A stretch of 12,497 bases of DNA from a virus (taxonomy: Duplodnaviria; Heunggongvirae; Uroviricota; Caudoviricetes): the IMG/VR virus record IMGVR_UViG_2859799533_000004. One strand, given 5' to 3'. Position numbers and translations under genes: made by a program. The notes beneath the pieces are model-generated. The model made no database searches. It worked only from the letters and a program-made list of their open reading frames with translations, and was not told where the DNA came from. Below, in pieces: positions 1,836 through 9,909 of this stretch. Within the stretch, counting starts at the first letter, position 1. The number at the start of each line of letters is the position of its first letter.

Positions 1836-2210
1836 ATGAATACTGGATATTCTCCCGAACAAGGGCGGGGCTTCGTTCGTCCTGAAAAACAGAATCTGCA
1901 AAATTTTGCCGAAATTATTCCGGTTATTTCCGGCCTTACTGGCGGGAGTGAAACCAATATTGTTAACGCCAGAGCGTTGCAGATGTTTGATGATAAAAAG
2001 GGAGTAAATTTAACTTACACCCCTGACGGCAATCAGAATATGAGCATTATCTCTGAGTCAGGTTTCTACAAACTAATAAAAACAAAAAGCGCCCCGTTGC
2101 CGGAGCGCCTTTGTGAACAATTAACCTACTGCGCAAAAAATGAATCTGAGCAGTGGGATTATATCAACCATGTGGAGAAGCGCCACAATTGCCGAATAAC
2201 GGGCAAAACA
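1836..2210 (+). CDS. Possible Bro-N-like (antirepressor-type) protein fragment; 3' end undefined because the frame stays open to 3260
   Basis: N-terminal ~125 aa are protein-like and contain a Bro-N-like motif (DDKKGVNLTYTPDGNQNMSIISESGFYKLIKTKS). The remainder of the 474-aa ORF is Cys/Ser/Arg-rich and antisense to better-supported minus-strand genes. End coordinate is nominal. Confidence 0.3.
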
Positions 2211-2311
2211 AAGGCCACCCGCTACGGTGGCCCCTCGACACAAGCTACACGTTATCCCCAACGCATGAGCATTGCCAACAATGCCACATTTGCGGCTGGT
2301 GGGCAATGCAA

Positions 2312-2500
2312 TCAGTCTGGTTCAGTTCGTTGCCATACCTGCAATGAGCGCTTTTCCCTGTACTCTTTAAGGAATTGCTCAAGGGCAAAAGCACATGGCG
2401 CGAATCTTTCTGATTCATGCTCTATCTTTCTGCGCCGTCTTTTCCGTGCCGGTGATAATGTTTTGGTCAATTCTTTATCGGTCATTGTGTTGTCCTGCAT
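2312..2500 (-). CDS. Small basic protein (57-62 aa), second gene of the leftward pair; function unknown
   Basis: ORF with an RRRRK basic patch. An internal ATG at 2485 has a better SD (AGGA, 7-nt spacer) than the ATG at 2500. Lies 42 bp downstream of the RHH-like gene. Confidence 0.45.
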   Translation of the reverse strand: MQDNTMTDKELTKTLSPARKRRRRKIEHESERFAPCAFALEQFLKEYREKRSLQVWQRTEPD

Positions 2501-2542
2501 AGCAATGCGCCGTAATACCTTACACCACGGCGCTGATGGTGA

Positions 2543-2848
2543 TTACTCTGGTTCTTTGGTCTTGCGGCGCTGGAGTTCTTCACGTGCGACAGTGACGAGC
2601 TGCCCGATCTCCTCGGCGGCTTTGATTCCGAGTTTTTCCACCTGCGCCAGTGCATCGAGCGAAGAAACCAGGGGATTTTCTCCACTTCCTTCTGCCTGGC
2701 GCCGGGCGATCTCACCGCGTACAGCCGTAACTATAAAATTCGCTTTAGTTTCCCCTGGCTGTAGGGATGCCTCAATGCCACTCACTACTTCATGTGGAAA
2801 TCTGGCATTCAGTTGCTGTGACTTATTGTTAACAGAACTCCTGGACAT
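2543..2848 (-). CDS. Putative transcriptional regulator, possibly ribbon-helix-helix type; candidate island repressor (or antitoxin)
   Basis: 101-aa protein from ATG at 2848 with strong SD (GGAGGTG, 5-nt spacer). N-terminal pattern NARFPHEVVSGIEASL...TKANFIVTAVRGEIARRQ fits a beta-strand plus two helices. It is transcribed divergently from the main operon across the operator palindromes. Confidence 0.55.
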   Translation of the reverse strand: MSRSSVNNKSQQLNARFPHEVVSGIEASLQPGETKANFIVTAVRGEIARRQAEGSGENPLVSSLDALAQVEKLGIKAAEEIGQLVTVAREELQRRKTKEPE

Positions 2849-2891
2849 GTTTGCACCTCCCATTAATAACGGGATGCAGTGTAATACAAAA

Positions 2892-2946
2892 GTGAATACC
2901 AAAAAAGACTTGAAATGGTATTCACCTAAATGTAATGTGAATACCA
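2892..2946. promoter_or_regulatory. Operator region: three copies of GTGAATACCA forming two overlapping perfect 10-bp-arm palindromes between the divergent genes
   Basis: GTGAATACCA at 2892-2901, TGGTATTCAC at 2916-2925 (inverted), GTGAATACCA at 2937-2946; read directly. Confidence 0.6.
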
Positions 2947-2984
2947 CAAGTGCTGATACATGCAATTCAGCAATTGAAACGACG

Positions 2985-3017
2985 AAGCCCCGCACTGTTG
3001 GAGCAGTAACGGGGCTT
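2985..3017 (+). promoter_or_regulatory. Imperfect long hairpin in the leader of the rightward operon
   Basis: AAGCCCCG(2985-2992) pairs with CGGGGCTT(3010-3017), extended by CACTG/CAGT. No following T-run, so it is not a classic terminator. Confidence 0.3.
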
Positions 3018-3053
3018 CTAACCACCAACGATAACGAGAGTATCGAGGTAGCT

Positions 3054-3260
3054 ATGAGAAATCATACCACACACCCGCAAGGGCGGGACTCGCACAACCT
3101 GAATAAATACATCTGGCGTTTTATCGCCCTGAGCACTGCACAACCGCGCGTGATTACCATTGAGGCCACCAGCGAACAGGAAGCACGCCAGCAATCCCCG
3201 GCTGGCTGCGTGATGGTATTCGCTGCCCGTATTCGTCAGGAGGTGTGCCATGTGCAATAA
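3054..3260 (+). CDS. Small protein (68 aa), first gene of the rightward operon; tentatively Icd-like (P4 cell-division-inhibitor family)
   Basis: ATG 3054 with SD GAGGT (4-nt spacer). Protein-like sequence YIWRFIALSTAQPRVITIEATSEQEARQQ...VMVFAARIR. The family assignment is from memory and unverified. Its stop overlaps the next start. Confidence 0.5.
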   Translation: MRNHTTHPQGRDSHNLNKYIWRFIALSTAQPRVITIEATSEQEARQQSPAGCVMVFAARIRQEVCHVQ

Positions 3261-3474
3261 CACCCGTCCGGACGCAGCCGCCGAAGCCATCATAACGCTA
3301 ATGCATGCGCTGATTGATATTTCTGTTATTGCTGACAGGGCGCATAAACACGCAGCCAGAGAATCAGAATGCATCTTCCATTATTTAGCATTTGTGCAGC
3401 TAAAAGCCGATCAGGCACTGGATAAGGCCGGAAAAATTATCATGGCTGATGTGCAGGAGGTGCACCATGCATAA
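3250..3474 (+). CDS. Hypothetical protein (74 aa)
   Basis: ATG 3250 preceded by AGGAGG (6-nt spacer); overlaps the upstream stop by 11 nt and the downstream start by 8 nt. Confidence 0.6.
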   Translation: MCNNTRPDAAAEAIITLMHALIDISVIADRAHKHAARESECIFHYLAFVQLKADQALDKAGKIIMADVQEVHHA

Positions 3475-3832
3475 CCTGTCAATTTCTGACCTTAACAGCA
3501 TTCAGTTTGACGAGAAATTTACCGGGCAGTTGCTGGTCAATGTGGAGAACGGGCGCATAGTGCGTAATTATCACCTGCCGGATGGTGCAATTGCCGGAAG
3601 CGTTGAAGCATTGCTGGAACTGGCGGAACGTGCGCGACTGATTAAGCCGTCAACGAGCCATCACGATGATGATCTGCATTTTACCGGATGTATGGTGAGT
3701 CACTACGAAAACGGCGTCGAGGTATCCTGCGAACGGCTGCGTGATGATTGCTGTTTCGGCACACTGCCGGAATTTATCGAGTTGCTGACCAGTTGCGGTT
3801 ATCAGGTCATTCAGGGGGGTAAACATGCGTGA
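3467..3832 (+). CDS. Hypothetical protein (121 aa)
   Basis: Start placed at ATG 3467 (MHNLSISD...) because AGGAGG sits 7 nt upstream; the ORF-track start at 3449 lacks an SD. Coupled to its neighbours by ATGCATAA and CATGCGTGA overlaps. Confidence 0.6.
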   Translation: MHNLSISDLNSIQFDEKFTGQLLVNVENGRIVRNYHLPDGAIAGSVEALLELAERARLIKPSTSHHDDDLHFTGCMVSHYENGVEVSCERLRDDCCFGTLPEFIELLTSCGYQVIQGGKHA

Positions 3833-4058
3833 TGATCGTTTTAATTCCCTGAAACAGGAATTTTCCGGCGTTCCTGATGATGCGGCTGATGCGCTTTCGT
3901 CAATGCCAGAACTTATTAGAGCGGCTTTTTTCTTACTTTCCACGAGAGAATATAAATCAACGGGGCTTGATGTACTGAATATCGCCGCCGATTATGCGGA
4001 ATATGTGGCAGAGGCGCGTTACAGAAGAAAATTTCCTGAGGATGTAAGCCATGCGTGA
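3825..4058 (+). CDS. Hypothetical protein (77 aa)
   Basis: ATG overlaps the upstream stop (ATGCGTGA); begins MRD. Confidence 0.6.
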   Translation: MRDDRFNSLKQEFSGVPDDAADALSSMPELIRAAFFLLSTREYKSTGLDVLNIAADYAEYVAEARYRRKFPEDVSHA

Positions 4059-4284
4059 TATTTACCACGAAACAATAGACCGCGCATTTCTTGCACTTTC
4101 TCACAGTGAAAACATGCTGGAAATATTGCGCATATGGCTTGAAACACTTGGCGACAATGAACGCGACAAACAAAAATCAAGAATTGCCACGGCATTAATA
4201 ACGCTTCTTGAGCCTGTAATAATGGAACTGCAAGAAATAGATCTATTGCACGACAGATATAAAGAACAGCACACCGGAGAATAA
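4051..4284 (+). CDS. Hypothetical protein (77 aa)
   Basis: Same ATGCGTGA overlap junction as the preceding gene; also begins MRD and has the same length, suggesting a diverged tandem paralog. Confidence 0.6.
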   Translation: MRDIYHETIDRAFLALSHSENMLEILRIWLETLGDNERDKQKSRIATALITLLEPVIMELQEIDLLHDRYKEQHTGE

Positions 4285-4289
4285 AAATA

Positions 4290-4589
4290 ATGAAACTTAA
4301 ATATTCTGGCTTAACTGCCAGTGGCAACACTCACCCTAAATTTACGCGCGGTGATATTTACCGCGACCAGTACGGCGGCACGGTAATGATTAAGGGCGTG
4401 GAAGAACGGCGTGTAACCTACCGCCGTGAAGGTTACGAATATGATTGCGTGATGCCTGTTTATCAGTTCCGGCGTGATTTTTCTCTGGTACAGACCGCGC
4501 CGCATAACGTGCCCACCAGCAACGCCAGGGCACGGGCAAACATCCAGAAGCTGAAAACCATGGTTAACGGATTCAGGGGCAAGAAATGA
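4290..4589 (+). CDS. Hypothetical protein (99 aa) immediately upstream of, and coupled to, the replicase gene
   Basis: ATG 4290 with GGAGA upstream; its stop overlaps the rep start (ATGA). Confidence 0.65.
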   Translation: MKLKYSGLTASGNTHPKFTRGDIYRDQYGGTVMIKGVEERRVTYRREGYEYDCVMPVYQFRRDFSLVQTAPHNVPTSNARARANIQKLKTMVNGFRGKK

Positions 4590-5884
4590 AAAGCGCACCG
4601 AACTTAAAAAAACAGCCTTACGACAAGATGACCGAAGTCATTATTTTTGCGGGTAGTGATGCCTGGGCACATGCGAAACAGTGGCAGGAACAGGACGGGC
4701 GACTGGCTGGCGATAATGTGCCTCCCGTTGTGCTGGCTGATGATCAACTGGATGAACTGGCAGACCTGAGAATCATCGACGAGGGGCGCTATTGTGTCCG
4801 GCTGTACAAGGCAGGCCACATCAGGCCATCAAATATTAATGCCATTGCGCACAAGCTGGCGGCGGCGGGTGTAACTGATGCGAATTATTACCCCGAAGGG
4901 ATGCACAGCCATATGCGGGAGAACTGGCGCGAATACCTGGAACGGGTGCGCGGGAAAGAGCCGGCGGAAGAAAAAAACCACCAGCGAAAAACCACGCTAC
5001 CGATGAGCGTTGGATCTACCGGATACGACACGCAACTGGATTACGTGGTTAAGGGGATTATTCCGGCGGTATCGCTATGCAGCATATACGGAGCTAGCGG
5101 GTCCTATAAATCATTCCTTGCCGGATCGTGGGCGTGCCATGTTGCCACTGGTCGCCAGTGGGGAGGCCGCAGGGTTGCACATGGTGCGGTTCTCTATGTG
5201 GTTGGTGAAGGCGGTATAGGTGTTCCGCGTCGTGTAAAAGCCTGGGAGGTTGTGCACGATGAGCAGGTGAAAAATCTGTATCTGGTAAACCGCCCCATCT
5301 TTCCGGCTGCCCCGCTTGATGTTGATGAAATGGTTATCGCTGCCCGTCAGGTGGAGCGGGAAACGGGTAAACCTGTACGCATGATTATTCTGGATACGCT
5401 GGCGCGTTGCTTTGGTGGGAATGATGAAAATGATTCCCGTGATATGGGGGCGTTTATCCGTGGTTGTGACGAACTGAAACGACGCACAGGGGCCACGGTG
5501 CTGGTGGTTCACCATTCCGGCAAGGATGAGACGAAAGGCGCGCGCGGTTCCAGTGCATTTCGTGCTTCGCTGGATGCTGAATACCGGATACGCAGGGAGG
5601 ACGCAGGAAGCGAAGCGCTGGTTATCTCATGCACCAAAATGAAGGACGCGGAGGAACTCAAAGAAGCCGCATATGACTTACGCGTGGTGGAGCTTTTTAC
5701 CGACGCTGACGGTGAATTAATCACGTCGCTGGTGGTGGTGGATGATCCGCGCCCTCCTGTTGAACTGGAGCGCATCGAGGAGGCAGGGAACAAGACGGAA
5801 AACCATACCGCGCTATGGGGTGCATCCGTTCACGCACACAGAACGGCGACAAGTGCACGATCCCGCTGTTACGTGATGACATGA
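4586..5884 (+). CDS. Replication protein: RepA/DnaB-like RecA-fold P-loop ATPase (AAA_25-type helicase core) with ~150-aa N-terminal extension
   Basis: P-loop region IYGASGSYKSFLAGSWACHVATG (5090-5113), Walker B VRMIILDTLARCF, and the family-typical VLVVHHSGKDETKGARGSSA motif. The Walker A is non-canonical (Tyr where the Gly before Lys is expected). Confidence 0.82.
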   Translation: MKSAPNLKKQPYDKMTEVIIFAGSDAWAHAKQWQEQDGRLAGDNVPPVVLADDQLDELADLRIIDEGRYCVRLYKAGHIRPSNINAIAHKLAAAGVTDANYYPEGMHSHMRENWREYLERVRGKEPAEEKNHQRKTTLPMSVGSTGYDTQLDYVVKGIIPAVSLCSIYGASGSYKSFLAGSWACHVATGRQWGGRRVAHGAVLYVVGEGGIGVPRRVKAWEVVHDEQVKNLYLVNRPIFPAAPLDVDEMVIAARQVERETGKPVRMIILDTLARCFGGNDENDSRDMGAFIRGCDELKRRTGATVLVVHHSGKDETKGARGSSAFRASLDAEYRIRREDAGSEALVISCTKMKDAEELKEAAYDLRVVELFTDADGELITSLVVVDDPRPPVELERIEEAGNKTENHTALWGASVHAHRTATSARSRCYVMT

Positions 5885-5985
5885 AAAAGCTGGGGTATGA
5901 AATGAAAAACTTCCGGCGCTGGCTGTACAAGCTGGAAAAAGATGGGGTTATTCGTATCGATGGGGATGATGTAGCGCCGCTATAA
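5881..5985 (+). CDS. Small ORF (34 aa) overlapping the rep stop (ATGA); may be a frame-shifted C-terminal part of the replicase rather than a separate gene
   Basis: The +1 frame from 5764 reads as protein-like sequence (..GDKCTIPLLRDDMKKLGYEMKNFRRWLYKLEKDGVIRIDGDDVAPL) whereas the annotated rep tail (HTALWGASVHAHRTATSARSRCYVMT) does not. Confidence 0.3.
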   Translation: MKKLGYEMKNFRRWLYKLEKDGVIRIDGDDVAPL

Positions 5986-7271: not shown

Positions 7272-7478
7272 ATGGCTGAAGAGAAAAAAGGCGGTGTTTC
7301 GGTGTACATAAGCCCCGAAATCGTGGAGGTGCTCAAGCAGCGCCACAAAAAAAACTATGAGGCTGGCGTGGCGGCTGGACTGGATCCGCTGATGACGCCG
7401 GAGCCGTCGATAGGTTCACTTGTACGCTCTTATTTACTTGCGGCGCTTGGGATGCATAAAAATTATGGGGGTGAATAA
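7272..7478 (+). CDS. Hypothetical protein (68 aa), first gene of the capsid operon
   Basis: ORF with GAGGA upstream; its stop overlaps the capsid gene start (TAATG). Confidence 0.55.
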   Translation: MAEEKKGGVSVYISPEIVEVLKQRHKKNYEAGVAAGLDPLMTPEPSIGSLVRSYLLAALGMHKNYGGE

Positions 7479-8533
7479 TGGCAGGCAAAGCAACGGCACT
7501 TAACACTCACCAGCTTTTTGCGTACCTGAATCGCGGGGATATTGCGGAATTTAAATTTAGTCCGCTGTTTACCACGCTGTTTTTCCCGAAAGTAGCGACA
7601 TTCAACACCCAAAACATCATGCTGGATAACCTGGACACCGAAGAAGTCACTATGTCAGCGTTTTGCTCGCCTATGGTTGGTAGCCAGGTACAGCGCGATA
7701 AAGGGTACGAAACCAGCACGATTAAACCTGGCTACATGAAGCCAAAGCACGAAATCGATCCAACAAAAACCATCATGCGCATGGCTGGAGAAGATCCGGC
7801 ACAGCTTAACGACCCAACCTATCGCCGTATGCGCCTGATTACTGGCAACATGCGCCGCCAGGTAAACGCTATTAAAGCGCGTGTTGAATGGCTGGCGGTA
7901 AATGCGGTAACGACCGGAAAAAACATCATTGAGGGCGAAGGCATAGAACGCTATGAAATCGACTGGAAGATGCCGGAAAACAACATCATAGAGCAGGCCA
8001 AAGGCCGTAAATGGTCCGAGCAGGACAAAGAAACCCACGATCCAATCTATGATATCGAGCTTTATGCGGATCAGGGCAATTGCCCCGCAAACGTCATGAT
8101 TATGGGCGCTGAGGTATGGCGCACGTTACGCAGCTTTAAAAAATTCCGCGAACTGTACGATCTTTCCCGTGGTTCAGAATCCGCCGCAGAACTGGCCTGT
8201 AAAAACCTGGGCGAAGTGGTGAGCTTTAAAGGCTATCTGGGCGATATTGCCCTTATCGTCTATTCCGGCAAATACGCCGACAGCGACGGCACCGAAAAAC
8301 ATTTCCTTGAGCCTGATTTGCTGGTCTTGGGCAACACCAACAATAAAGGGCTGGTTGCTTATGGTGCGATTATGGATCAGGAAGCGGTAAGAACGGGCGC
8401 AACGCAAAACATGTACTACCCGAAAAACTGGATTGAGGACGGCGATCCGGCGATTGAGTACGTGCAGACGCACAGCGCACCGCAGCCGGTGCCGGCAGAC
8501 ATTCGCAAATTTGTTACCGTCAAAATTGGTTAA
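7478..8533 (+). CDS. Major capsid protein, phage lambda gpE family
   Basis: 351 aa. Shares multiple blocks with lambda gpE as recalled: FKFSPLF..LFFP, PGYMKPKHE, EDPAQLNDPTYRRMR, RGSESAAEL..LGEVVSFKGYLGDIALIVYSGKY, YPKNW, GDPA. Similar length to gpE (341 aa). Confidence 0.85.
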   Translation: MAGKATALNTHQLFAYLNRGDIAEFKFSPLFTTLFFPKVATFNTQNIMLDNLDTEEVTMSAFCSPMVGSQVQRDKGYETSTIKPGYMKPKHEIDPTKTIMRMAGEDPAQLNDPTYRRMRLITGNMRRQVNAIKARVEWLAVNAVTTGKNIIEGEGIERYEIDWKMPENNIIEQAKGRKWSEQDKETHDPIYDIELYADQGNCPANVMIMGAEVWRTLRSFKKFRELYDLSRGSESAAELACKNLGEVVSFKGYLGDIALIVYSGKYADSDGTEKHFLEPDLLVLGNTNNKGLVAYGAIMDQEAVRTGATQNMYYPKNWIEDGDPAIEYVQTHSAPQPVPADIRKFVTVKIG

Positions 8534-8544
8534 CGGGGGATTCT

Positions 8545-8880
8545 ATGAACACTCCATACATTGAGTTATTTGCAGGCAGTCAGCAGGTATCCACGACGCT
8601 GGTACATTTTGCCGCTGATGCTGGCGTCATTCAGGAATTTACCCCGCTGATGCTGGCGGACAATGGCGAGTTTAAGCCGTGGGATGGTCAGGCGTCCGGA
8701 AAGGCTGTTTATCTGACTTCGTACCCCGTGGACACGTCAAAGCAGAAATCAGCACAGTGCTACAAGACGGGGATCTTTAATATCGCCGCCGTGAACTGGC
8801 CCGAGAGCGTCGACACCGATGCGAAAAAATGCGCCGCCTTTGCGGGTTCTGGCGTATCCGTTCAGCCGCTGGCCCGATAA
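8545..8880 (+). CDS. Head decoration protein, phage lambda gpD family
   Basis: 111 aa versus 110 aa for gpD. Shared motifs TPLMLAD, WDG, YKTG.F, WPE, KK.AAFAG. Confidence 0.78.
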   Translation: MNTPYIELFAGSQQVSTTLVHFAADAGVIQEFTPLMLADNGEFKPWDGQASGKAVYLTSYPVDTSKQKSAQCYKTGIFNIAAVNWPESVDTDAKKCAAFAGSGVSVQPLAR

Positions 8881-8892
8881 GCAGGGGGAACG

Positions 8893-9306
8893 ATGGCAAC
8901 GAATGAAAGCATCATGACGCTACCGCTGGCGAGTAAATTTAAAGCCGAAGCGCGGGCAATGGCTGACAGAGGTTTATCAACCTACGAGGCCGTATATCAA
9001 CTCAACAAACTGGAAGAGCAGGACAAGCCGCGCGCTGATGCGATTATGGCGCTTCATGAGCATAACGACTATCAGCCGCTGTTACGTGCAATGGCAAACG
9101 TGCCTTGTATCGATGTTGGTACGGCTAAAAGCATCCTTAGCATGACCATAGAGCAGGAACGCCAGAAGGTTGCGCCGGAGCTTACCGCAGCCTTTGAAAA
9201 CTTTATGGACATGCACAGCCCGCAAGCCGTTTCAGCTGGCATGGCATACGACGGCAGAAACCCGGGCGATGATGGCGACATCGAGAGCATACTGAAAACC
9301 ATCTGA
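8893..9306 (+). CDS. Hypothetical protein (137 aa), last gene of the capsid operon, immediately upstream of cos
   Basis: ORF with GGGGGAA SD; no family recognised. Candidate packaging accessory protein by position only. Confidence 0.6.
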   Translation: MATNESIMTLPLASKFKAEARAMADRGLSTYEAVYQLNKLEEQDKPRADAIMALHEHNDYQPLLRAMANVPCIDVGTAKSILSMTIEQERQKVAPELTAAFENFMDMHSPQAVSAGMAYDGRNPGDDGDIESILKTI

Positions 9307-9311
9307 GACAA

Positions 9312-9334
9312 GGCCGGAGAAATCCGGCTTTTTT
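9312..9334 (+). terminator. Rho-independent terminator after the capsid operon
   Basis: GCCGGA-gaaa-TCCGGC hairpin plus TTTTTTT; nearly identical to the terminator at 6873-6894. Confidence 0.7.
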
Positions 9335-9420
9335 TACGGGTCCTTTCCGGCATATGGACCCGTTACGGGGCGGCGACCTCGCGGGTTTTCGCTATTTATG
9401 ACGTTTTTCCGTGAAGGTGA
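9335..9420 (+). other. Lambda-type cohesive-end site (S2): cosQ, cosN and the start of a lambda-like cosB
   Basis: ACGGGTCCTTTCCGG...GACCCGTTACG then GGGCGGCGACCT (9367-9378) CGCGGGTTTTCGCTATTTATGA matches the lambda right-end/left-end junction as recalled; followed by CGTTTTTCCGTG, resembling lambda R3. Confidence 0.85.
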
Positions 9421-9468
9421 CACCACCACCACTTGATTAATATTTAACCATGCAGTTAAGGTAACATT

Positions 9469-9909
9469 ATGATTGATAAAGCTTGTTTTGTAAGTCAGCA
9501 GGAAATAGCTGAACATTTCAAGGTTAACAGAACCACTATTCGCGCATGGACCAAACAGGGGATGCCGTATCTTAATGCGGATCGCGGAAAGTCTGGCGGT
9601 TATCACATCGGGCATACATTGCTTTGGTCTTCAGGTAAAAGCCGTCTTGAGGCCATCAGATATCACGTAGAAACCAGTGCGCTGGAAAAAATTATGTTTG
9701 CCAGGCTGCTTTCATCTGAGCGTGACGAGTACTCCAGTGAAGAAACAGAACATAGATTTGATGAAGGTTTACAGATTTACGGCTACTCACCGGAAGAAGT
9801 GAGCAAAGCGCGAAATAAAATGGCCGGCTTTCTGGCTGGGTGGCGTCATGCCGTAAGCGTTCGCCGTGCCAGCATGGAACAATCAGTCGTTACAGAACAG
9901 CAAAGTTAA
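9469..9909 (+). CDS. Small-terminase-like protein with Nu1-type N-terminal winged-HTH; candidate island packaging-specificity factor
   Basis: N-terminus VSQQEIAEHFKVNRTTIRAWTKQGMPYL parallels lambda Nu1 VNKKQLADIFGASIRTIQNWQEQGMPVL; the C-terminal half is unrelated to Nu1. Gene sits directly downstream of cos, as Nu1 does in lambda. Confidence 0.72.
   Translation: MIDKACFVSQQEIAEHFKVNRTTIRAWTKQGMPYLNADRGKSGGYHIGHTLLWSSGKSRLEAIRYHVETSALEKIMFARLLSSERDEYSSEETEHRFDEGLQIYGYSPEEVSKARNKMAGFLAGWRHAVSVRRASMEQSVVTEQQS

Follow-up and report, generated by a model that had tools for sequence, protein, structure and literature searches.

A mosaic six-gene block ahead of the replicase gene of an EcCICFT073-type phage-inducible chromosomal island as a candidate early-operon module

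We have analysed a block of six small, tightly packed genes at positions 3054-4589 of IMG/VR virus record IMGVR_UViG_2859799533_000004, a stretch of 12,497 nucleotides (nt) which as a whole we call the window and to whose positions all gene coordinates refer. The window is a phage-inducible chromosomal island (PICI) of the EcCICFT073 type, about 11 kb in size and lying between roxA and phoQ, and the block represents one allele of a PICI module that is known and already partly characterised. On balance, and with guarded confidence, we read the block as the section nearest the promoter in this island's early (replication) operon, serving as a module for host takeover. The six genes would then form one translationally coupled string continuing into the replicase and SSB genes, transcribed from a promoter located within the 205 bp upstream of gene 1, where three operators for a ribbon-helix-helix (RHH) repressor, itself encoded divergently, would flank it. 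A second entry might be provided by read-through from an AlpA-activated upstream unit, through a long open reading frame (ORF) that ends in gene 1. Gene 1, an Icd-like gene, would arrest host division or growth; gene 6, encoding RgdR, would supply a small basic DNA-binding protein tied to the replicase start which also perturbs host transcription (of the LEE, the enterocyte effacement locus, and of motility); gene 5 would be the constant partner of RgdR, and genes 2-4 would encode interchangeable small proteins, probably binders of host or phage proteins. Once switched on, such an operon would prepare the cell for island replication, and if triggered by a non-helper phage it would lead to growth arrest.

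The gene string

The block consists of the following genes.

Gene 1, 3054-3260, plus strand: 68 amino acids (aa), Icd-like, short form
Gene 2, 3250-3474, plus strand: 74 aa, orphan, predicted helical hairpin
Gene 3, 3467-3832, plus strand: 121 aa, orphan with an internal tandem duplication
Gene 4, 3825-4058, plus strand: 77 aa, helical orphan
Gene 5, 4051-4284, plus strand: 77 aa, helical orphan preceding RgdR
Gene 6, 4290-4589, plus strand: 99 aa, RgdR (DUF4222)

RefSeq (PGAP) annotates the identical six coding sequences in the E. coli chromosome NZ_CP030768.1, which is 100% identical across the block, and an earlier, sequence-only reading of the window had listed six ORFs of these lengths (68, 74, 121, 77, 77 and 99 aa) at the same positions. 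That reading had placed the block in a satellite element immediately upstream of its replicase gene, which holds on both counts, and had described the genes as a chain of overlapping stop and start codons, each with a plausible Shine-Dalgarno sequence. Shine-Dalgarno sequences and coupled starts do run along the block, and genes 1 to 5 overlap as described, by 11 nt between genes 1 and 2 (ATGTGCAATAA), by 8 nt between genes 2 and 3 (ATGCATAA), and by 8 nt at each of the next two junctions, between genes 3 and 4 and between genes 4 and 5 (ATGCGTGA both times). Genes 5 and 6, however, do not overlap but are separated by a 5-nt spacer, and the ATGA that had been counted within the chain is instead a 4-nt overlap joining the stop of gene 6 to the start of the replicase gene. 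The two near-identical AGGAGG contexts that had been pointed out are present, genes 2 and 3 each being preceded by CAGGAGGTG(TG/CA)CCATG.

All six proteins match PHROG families (E 1e-28 to 1e-49), and for genes 1, 2, 5 and 6, where it was measured, a dN/dS of 0.14-0.37 against other alleles points to purifying selection. The corresponding figure for gene 4 against CFT073 is 0.83, with few changes behind it. Exact copies of the block proteins are present on hundreds to more than 1000 contigs. The G+C content of genes 4 and 5 is lower. We also considered paralogy among the six proteins and rejected it, BLASTP among them showing nothing. It appears to us very improbable that any of the six would be a shadow ORF or a decaying remnant and not a real gene. 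Such a view could draw on the dN/dS of gene 4, on the many deletion-derived fusions and truncated forms held in databases, and on the frameshift that repA carries in this window. It has to contend with strong PHROG matches for all six proteins, with the low dN/dS of four of the genes, with Shine-Dalgarno sequences and coupled starts and with identical PGAP calls, and the repA frameshift itself lies in a homopolymer and is possibly a sequencing error.

Control region upstream of gene 1

The region ahead of gene 1 and the divergent gene beyond it hold the features listed below.

Putative sigma-70 promoter, 2910-2938, plus strand: TTGAAA, 17-nt spacer, TAATGT, read from the sequence
Operators, three perfect 10-bp copies of GTGAATACCA: 2892-2901 (plus strand), 2916-2925 (minus strand) and 2937-2946 (plus strand)
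Leader hairpin, 2984-3018, plus strand: fold z-score -5.4, with none of 200 shuffles folding as well
YlcI/YnfO-family RHH gene, 2543-2848, minus strand: NF041551 at 3.1e-16; phrog_6522

The -35 element of the promoter is kept as TTGA(C/A) in six alleles. Allowing at most one mismatch, the operator sequence is matched six times where 0.61 matches would be expected, and five other islands have operators at the same places with different sequences. Between alleles the stem of the leader hairpin shows compensatory changes through which pairing is kept, and from the hairpin to position 3053 there follows a leader, TAACCACCAACGATA...GAGGTAGCT, of 35 nt up to the start of gene 1, which is invariant in six alleles. 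A scan against Rfam found no family for the hairpin and no C4-type RNA, the only match at E <= 1 being a spurious one to RsaJ.

The divergent gene has a lower dN/dS in its own minus frame than in the plus frame in five of six allele pairs. Its product shows a ribbon-helix-helix-like pattern in which the variable beta-strand residues, Q/N/F in this island, track the operator sequence across six islands, and the two islands that share these residues have near-identical operators. Because the beta-strand residues co-vary with the operators, we put the RHH protein forward as the candidate repressor of the block. The existence of a repressor in Gram-negative PICIs was left open by a 2018 study, and if the regulatory picture drawn here is true, a candidate master repressor for them would now be named. 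The leftward unit formed by the ylcI-type gene and its hypothetical neighbour ends in a strong intrinsic terminator (2085-2112, minus strand; 12-bp stem and T-run), which sits inside the long plus-strand ORF considered below.

Gene 1 and the long reading frame that ends in it

Gene 1 is assigned as an Icd-like protein by its NCBIfam profile alone (NF033153, 69.8 bits against a cut-off of 25, residues 19-62). It matches phrog_6196 at 1.6e-46, corresponds to RefSeq WP_001403026.1 and has a dN/dS of 0.18-0.33; a sequence search of the PDB with it gave nothing credible. The Icd protein of P1 inhibits cell division, reversibly, and we infer that this allele of gene 1 may arrest division too.

The start of gene 1 is ambiguous. 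The short form has its own GAGG Shine-Dalgarno sequence, and public records annotate both the 68-aa form and a 474-aa form, the latter as "Icd-like" on 376 contigs. The longer form corresponds to the following feature.

Long ORF, 1836-3260, plus strand: 474 codons, starting just past alpA and ending in gene 1

This ORF is antisense to two minus-strand genes and crosses the promoter/operator region. From alpA to the Icd start, the Icd frame holds no stop or a single stop in seven alleles, against 12-28 stops in the other two frames, and the probability of finding no stop is, per allele, 0.01-0.03 across the divergent 200 nt and 0.14-0.38 across the ylcI-type gene. The middle part that it encodes shows no conservation at the protein level. 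There may, then, be a long isoform, or else the frame stays open to allow read-through that depends on translation. The first ~100 aa (1836-2150) give a weak Bro-N match (E 0.0094), and we regard this segment as a BRO-N-like remnant. The N-terminus of the segment and an AGGQCNQSGSVR motif recur in ECs1576 of Sakai, and sibling islands carry at this position an intact BRO-N gene or a pseudogene.

Gene 6 and the DUF4222 family

Gene 6 matches Pfam DUF4222 (PF13973) at 85.7 bits against a cut-off of 27 (1.6e-24), carries an RGD motif at residues 20-22 (R20-G21-D22), and is 100% identical to a protein of O157 strain LSU61, 93% identical to C1493 of CFT073 and 81% identical to ECs1581 of Sakai. ECs1581 and C1493 are RgdR, a 99-aa basic protein which activates LEE1/type III secretion and acts as a repressor of motility; its DNA binding is non-specific, and its RGD motif is needed for function. 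According to the PICI literature, RgdR is encoded by all E. coli PICIs analysed. Judged by family, identity and position at the locus, directly before the replicase gene, gene 6 is an orthologue of these tested proteins and thus RgdR. A PDB sequence search with gene 6 gave nothing credible, and a genome-contig search with it found Shigella flexneri and E. albertii alone. Within gene 5, at 4195-4223 and upstream of rgdR, lies a promoter-like site (TTAATA, 17-nt spacer, AATAAT with TG; a consensus match only), which adjoins the sole non-overlapping junction of the block.

The family is also found outside PICIs. In e14, SfIV, SKA5 and two other phages, the gene for the replication initiator has a DUF4222 ORF directly upstream of it.

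L013 (E. coli K-12 e14), 4002-4181: DUF4222 ORF
L012 (phage SfIV), 2938-3159: DUF4222 ORF
L011, ~3001-3129: DUF4222 ORF
L016, 1801-1941: DUF4222 ORF
L017, 1801-1941: DUF4222 ORF

In e14 and SfIV the ORF overlaps the start of the initiator gene, with Pfam scores there of 67-69 bits. It lies out of frame within the 3' half of the annotated ymfM in e14, SfIV and SKA5 and is unannotated in the two other phages; the annotated YmfM proteins have no Pfam DUF4222 match, the match belonging to another reading frame. Since DUF4222 adjoins replication genes in phages as well as in PICIs, these data suggest that the effect on the LEE may be a side activity and not the native role of RgdR. The fragment that was cloned as the "cell division inhibitor" ymfM holds most of the DUF4222 ORF, and so one may ask which of the fragment's products gives SfiC filamentation.

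A conserved core and a shuffled middle

Part of the block is present in 1871 of 5426 complete E. coli genomes, and at least 80% of it in only 136. We compared ten islands by BLASTP, and each of them has an Icd-like gene, a member of the gene 5 family and RgdR. The latter two stand in that order and always before the replicase gene, which is of three types (RepA helicase, primase and DUF927). Between the Icd-like gene and the gene 5 family, the families that we call B, E, F and G are shuffled among the islands, and in CE10 the middle region holds a long Icd-like paralogue. Read from this map, genes 1, 5 and 6 form the conserved core of the island family rather than cargo, and the middle of the block is a recombination-shuffled cassette region, its genes 2-4 being Escherichia/Shigella/Salmonella orphans that are swapped between islands.

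The joints between the genes point to how this may come about. The 3' end of gene 1, GCCCGTATTCGTCAGGRGG, is conserved and serves as the Shine-Dalgarno sequence for any gene that comes next, and the 3' end of the RgdR gene with its ATGA joins all three replicase types. Gene 3, too, is preceded by a copy of the Icd joint, located where gene 2 ends, and this explains why two AGGAGG contexts are seen. The likely mechanism of shuffling is recombination at these short conserved Shine-Dalgarno and start-stop joints. Among public proteins (P0076, P0231, P0278-P0307) there are many deletion-derived in-frame fusions within the block, including gene 4 joined with gene 5, and gene 1 joined through a gene 2-like tail with gene 4; these show that recombination or decay is frequent in the region.

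Genes 2-5

Searches of genes 2-5 against Pfam, NCBIfam and PADLOC gave no match, and genes 3 and 5 had no tblastn match in 50,697 phage records. What can be said of them comes from PHROG matches, allele comparison and predicted structure. Gene 2 matches phrog_5146 at 1.1e-45 as well as the N-terminal half of phrog_2512, and its dN/dS is 0.27; gene 4 matches the C-terminal half of phrog_2512 at 1.8e-49, falls into 122 clusters, and has organism-named matches that are all Escherichia or Shigella. The two genes meet in phrog_2512 because natural fusion proteins exist, as in O157 strain LSU61, where gene 4 is joined in one protein with a gene 2-like part. From this fusion it seems that genes 2 and 4 probably act together. 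AlphaFold2 models the gene 2-like part of fusion protein P0289 as two helices of ~30 residues (pLDDT ~70) and the whole natural gene 2-like/gene 4 fusion at pLDDT 58.7; a Foldseek search of the fusion model against BFVD returned nothing below E = 4.

Gene 3 matches phrog_340 in two stretches and is a tandem duplication of a unit of ~40 aa (beta-hairpin and helix), its self-alignment scoring 47 against 19.3 +/- 3.6 for shuffles, none of 2000 of which reaches it. Its alleles hold 1, about 1.5 or 2 units. It falls into 70 clusters, with named matches in Escherichia and Salmonella only, and its profile found no relative in the PDB. The AlphaFold2 model has a pLDDT of 49.6, which is too poor for a fold search, and so it was used for secondary structure alone. 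A match of gene 3 to phrog_2512 perhaps stems from a chimeric allele, although this is a guess. Gene 5 matches phrog_2196 at 8.4e-42, has a dN/dS of 0.14, and is represented by 9 sequences among 1.84 billion proteins; its family adjoins RgdR in every one of the ten islands, at identities down to 26%.

The sequence-only reading had found a tentative family, Icd-like, for the first gene only, had called the block uncharacterised, and had proposed profile searches and structure prediction as checks. The Icd-like assignment is borne out by NF033153, but gene 1 is not alone in having a family, gene 6 being DUF4222/RgdR; genes 2-5 remain without a named family, and it is for these that "uncharacterised" is true. 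Structure prediction, for gene 3 and for the gene 2-like/gene 4 fusion, was of low confidence and yielded no informative fold.

The island around the block

The island begins with integrase and AlpA, which are followed by two leftward genes (the first hypothetical, the second of the YlcI/YnfO family), the six-gene block, a RepA-type helicase and SSB; downstream of SSB come lambda-type capsid and decoration genes and then small packaging-region genes. The integrase gene occupies 1-1230 and is followed by alpA, whose product matches PF05930 at 1.6e-17. The integrase, AlpA and the leftward hypothetical protein are identical to CFT073 proteins, and the roxA-phoQ site is the same. As expected of a PICI, integrase and alpA stand at one end, the element has its own replicase, its size of about 11 kb fits the usual range of about 10-15 kb, it sits at a specific attachment site, and it holds no lysis or tail genes; the right part has only capsid, decoration, connector-like and small helix-turn-helix genes. 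A blastn search with the whole block against the 50,697 phage records found no match.

RepA-type helicase/replicase gene, 4586-5985, plus strand: AAA_25 at 2.2e-43; phrog_2850 split over two ORFs

The replicase gene is translationally coupled to gene 6 and is frameshifted in this window. A deletion of 1 nt in the G-run at 5813-5816 leaves RepA as 432 aa plus a 56-aa tail, where the intact protein of NZ_CP030768.1 has 466 aa. The deletion is either an inactivating mutation or a sequencing error, the latter perhaps because of its location in a homopolymer. Against NZ_CP030768.1 the window is one base short at three positions, 1467-1470, 5813-5816 and ~10665; the two sites inspected lie in homopolymers (a C-run near 1467-1470 and the G-run at 5813-5816), and that at ~10665 was not inspected.

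At 7478-9909 this island, like EcCICFT073, carries solely lambda-type capsid, decoration and connector-like genes. Sp7 of Sakai (O-island 51), with the same site and the same left arm, has a complete head/terminase module (L006, 8102-14443) and is of the capsid-forming PICI type. The left arm is thus shared while the head module of Sp7 is complete, and left and right arms have therefore been exchanged independently.

Discussion

The reading of the block as the head of an early host-takeover operon draws on its families, joints and upstream operators, and also on published work. In a 2023 preprint, Silas et al. describe cell death set off by phage accessory genes in ECOR61 and with the P4-like satellite of ECOR15, with suppressor insertions falling in the Icd-like gene and adjacent small genes (in ECOR61 in two small middle genes too). 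In ECOR61, growth is arrested once a phage accessory protein is expressed; all six linked genes including the primase gene were needed, and the effect was muted. The Icd-like genes are the likely effector of phage-triggered cell death in both ECOR61 and ECOR15. In ECOR61 (contig QOYT01000045.1, about 8.9-12.5 kb), genes of 186 and 192 nt with overlaps of 8 and 1 nt fit a block of the Sakai type.

Several observations weigh on the other side. The ECOR61 locus is equated with this block from those gene lengths and overlaps only, and so we infer that the two are the same. No similarity to P1 Icd was detected by tblastn in 50,697 phage records, where only vB_KppS-Ant appeared at E <= 0.01, and an automatic promoter scan did not call the site at 2910-2938. 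No homologue that would be informative turned up for genes 2-5, and confidence in the structure models is low. The phenotypes of RgdR, moreover, occur in uninduced lysogens, so that at least gene 6 must be expressed without helper induction, which a tightly repressed operon fails to explain. The promoter-like site within gene 5 could account for this expression.

Other functions might be proposed for the small genes, among them the defence cargo envisaged by the sequence-only reading. That reading regarded the block as the best candidate location for helper-exploitation or defence functions. If genes 2-5 were dedicated anti-phage defence or helper-interference cargo in a defence hotspot, one might expect the high cassette turnover seen in the genome counts and in the mosaic map of ten islands, the lower G+C of genes 4 and 5, and the ECOR61 suppressor insertions in two middle genes besides the Icd-like gene. 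PADLOC-DB 2.0, however, holds no defence model that the six proteins or their neighbours match at E <= 0.1, the published accessory and defence region of PICIs lies downstream of pri, and gene 5 belongs to the core and not to cargo. The ECOR61 insertions are also possibly polar on RgdR and the primase, in a setting where all six genes are needed and the effect is muted. We consider such cargo unlikely; what stands of the earlier proposal is the shuffled middle and, if the link to our block is correct, the arrest seen in the ECOR61 sibling, and what does not stand is the hotspot, given the PADLOC result, the position downstream of pri and the core status of genes 1, 5 and 6.

We are similarly doubtful that the small proteins are replication accessory factors (for origin binding, helicase loading or copy control) acting with the downstream replicase. 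Translational coupling to the replicase, the invariable abutment of the gene 5-RgdR pair, the DUF4222 ORFs directly upstream of phage replication genes and the non-specific DNA binding of RgdR would all suit this idea; yet the same pair precedes three unrelated replicases (RepA helicase, primase and DUF927), which argues against a specific protein partnership, and genes 2-4 are dispensable across alleles. Less probable still is a helper-prophage derepressor or anti-repressor among the block genes, equivalent to the epsilon of P4 encoded upstream of the P4 primase. The position resembles that of P4-like satellites with ash/epsilon and Icd-like genes before the primase, and a BRO-N/AntA-type remnant lies just upstream. 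Derepression had been among the functions named for this position in satellites, but genes 1-6 have no Pfam match to Phage_ASH, AntA, Bro-N or KilA at E <= 0.1, which leaves that suggestion unsupported, and the induction of EcCICFT073 runs from helper to island via alpA and not in the reverse direction.

Returning to the early-operon reading, one extension of it can be offered tentatively, and we would not place great weight upon it. The RHH gene and the block might together constitute a phage-sensing abortive-infection switch, in which the RHH protein and its operators would act as a lock on the Icd-like effector, genes 2-4 and their alternatives in other islands would be sensors or adaptors for phage accessory proteins, and cassette shuffling at the joints would diversify the phages that trigger it; the long ORF would provide another way into the coupled operon, driven by AlpA.

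Part of the block is carried by about a third of complete E. coli genomes, and with it goes RgdR, which affects type III secretion and colonisation in enterohaemorrhagic E. coli. Were the regulatory picture to prove true, RgdR and DUF4222 would be set in a replication-module context common to temperate phages, and satellites would have a concrete recombination mechanism for swapping small host- and phage-directed proteins. The published ECOR61 cell-death locus triggered by phage would also, if the reading is true, be tied to the early operon of PICIs.

Comparison with known systems

The left operon of P4 (kil, eta, cI, epsilon, orf151, alpha) likewise places small genes with host-killing or helper-directed functions upstream of a satellite replicase. 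Sequence homology to the block was not found, P4 immunity is RNA-based, and PICIs and P4 are regarded as distinct lineages. In the immI operon of P1 (c4 RNA-icd-ant, then kilA-repL) a small Icd-family ORF heads an operon upstream of a replication initiator, and icd and ant are reportedly translationally coupled. Control there is by a C4-type antisense RNA, whereas here Rfam gave no such match and an RHH protein with its operators is apparently in control; P1 immI also has ant, of which there is no homologue here, and only a profile reveals the similarity to P1 Icd. The ECOR61 locus and the ECOR15 satellite resemble the PICI type of block in having an Icd-like gene, a primase and small genes that overlap, although genes 2-4 have no homology to the middle genes of ECOR61, which belong to families G61 and E63.

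The closest relatives are EcCICFT073 itself and O-island 51/CP-933C/Sp7 of O157:H7. EcCICFT073 is the prototype Gram-negative PICI, in which AlpA activates island genes and island replication. Induction by the helper and packaging in helper-derived particles have been demonstrated for EcCICFT073; the attachment site, roxA-phoQ, is common to both. The middle cassette differs among the three islands, being gene 2-gene 3-gene 4 here, E76-B73-B73 in CFT073 and G61-E63 in Sakai, and the replicase is a RepA helicase here and a primase in EcCICFT073 and Sp7. PerC is absent here, and the RHH allele, of 101 aa, goes with operators unlike theirs. RgdR as characterised from ECs1581 and C1493 shares with gene 6 its length of 99 aa, the RGD motif at residues 20-22, the DUF4222 core and the position before the replicase, and around it all three islands keep the same order of Icd-like gene, small genes, gene 5 family, RgdR, replicase, SSB and capsid genes.

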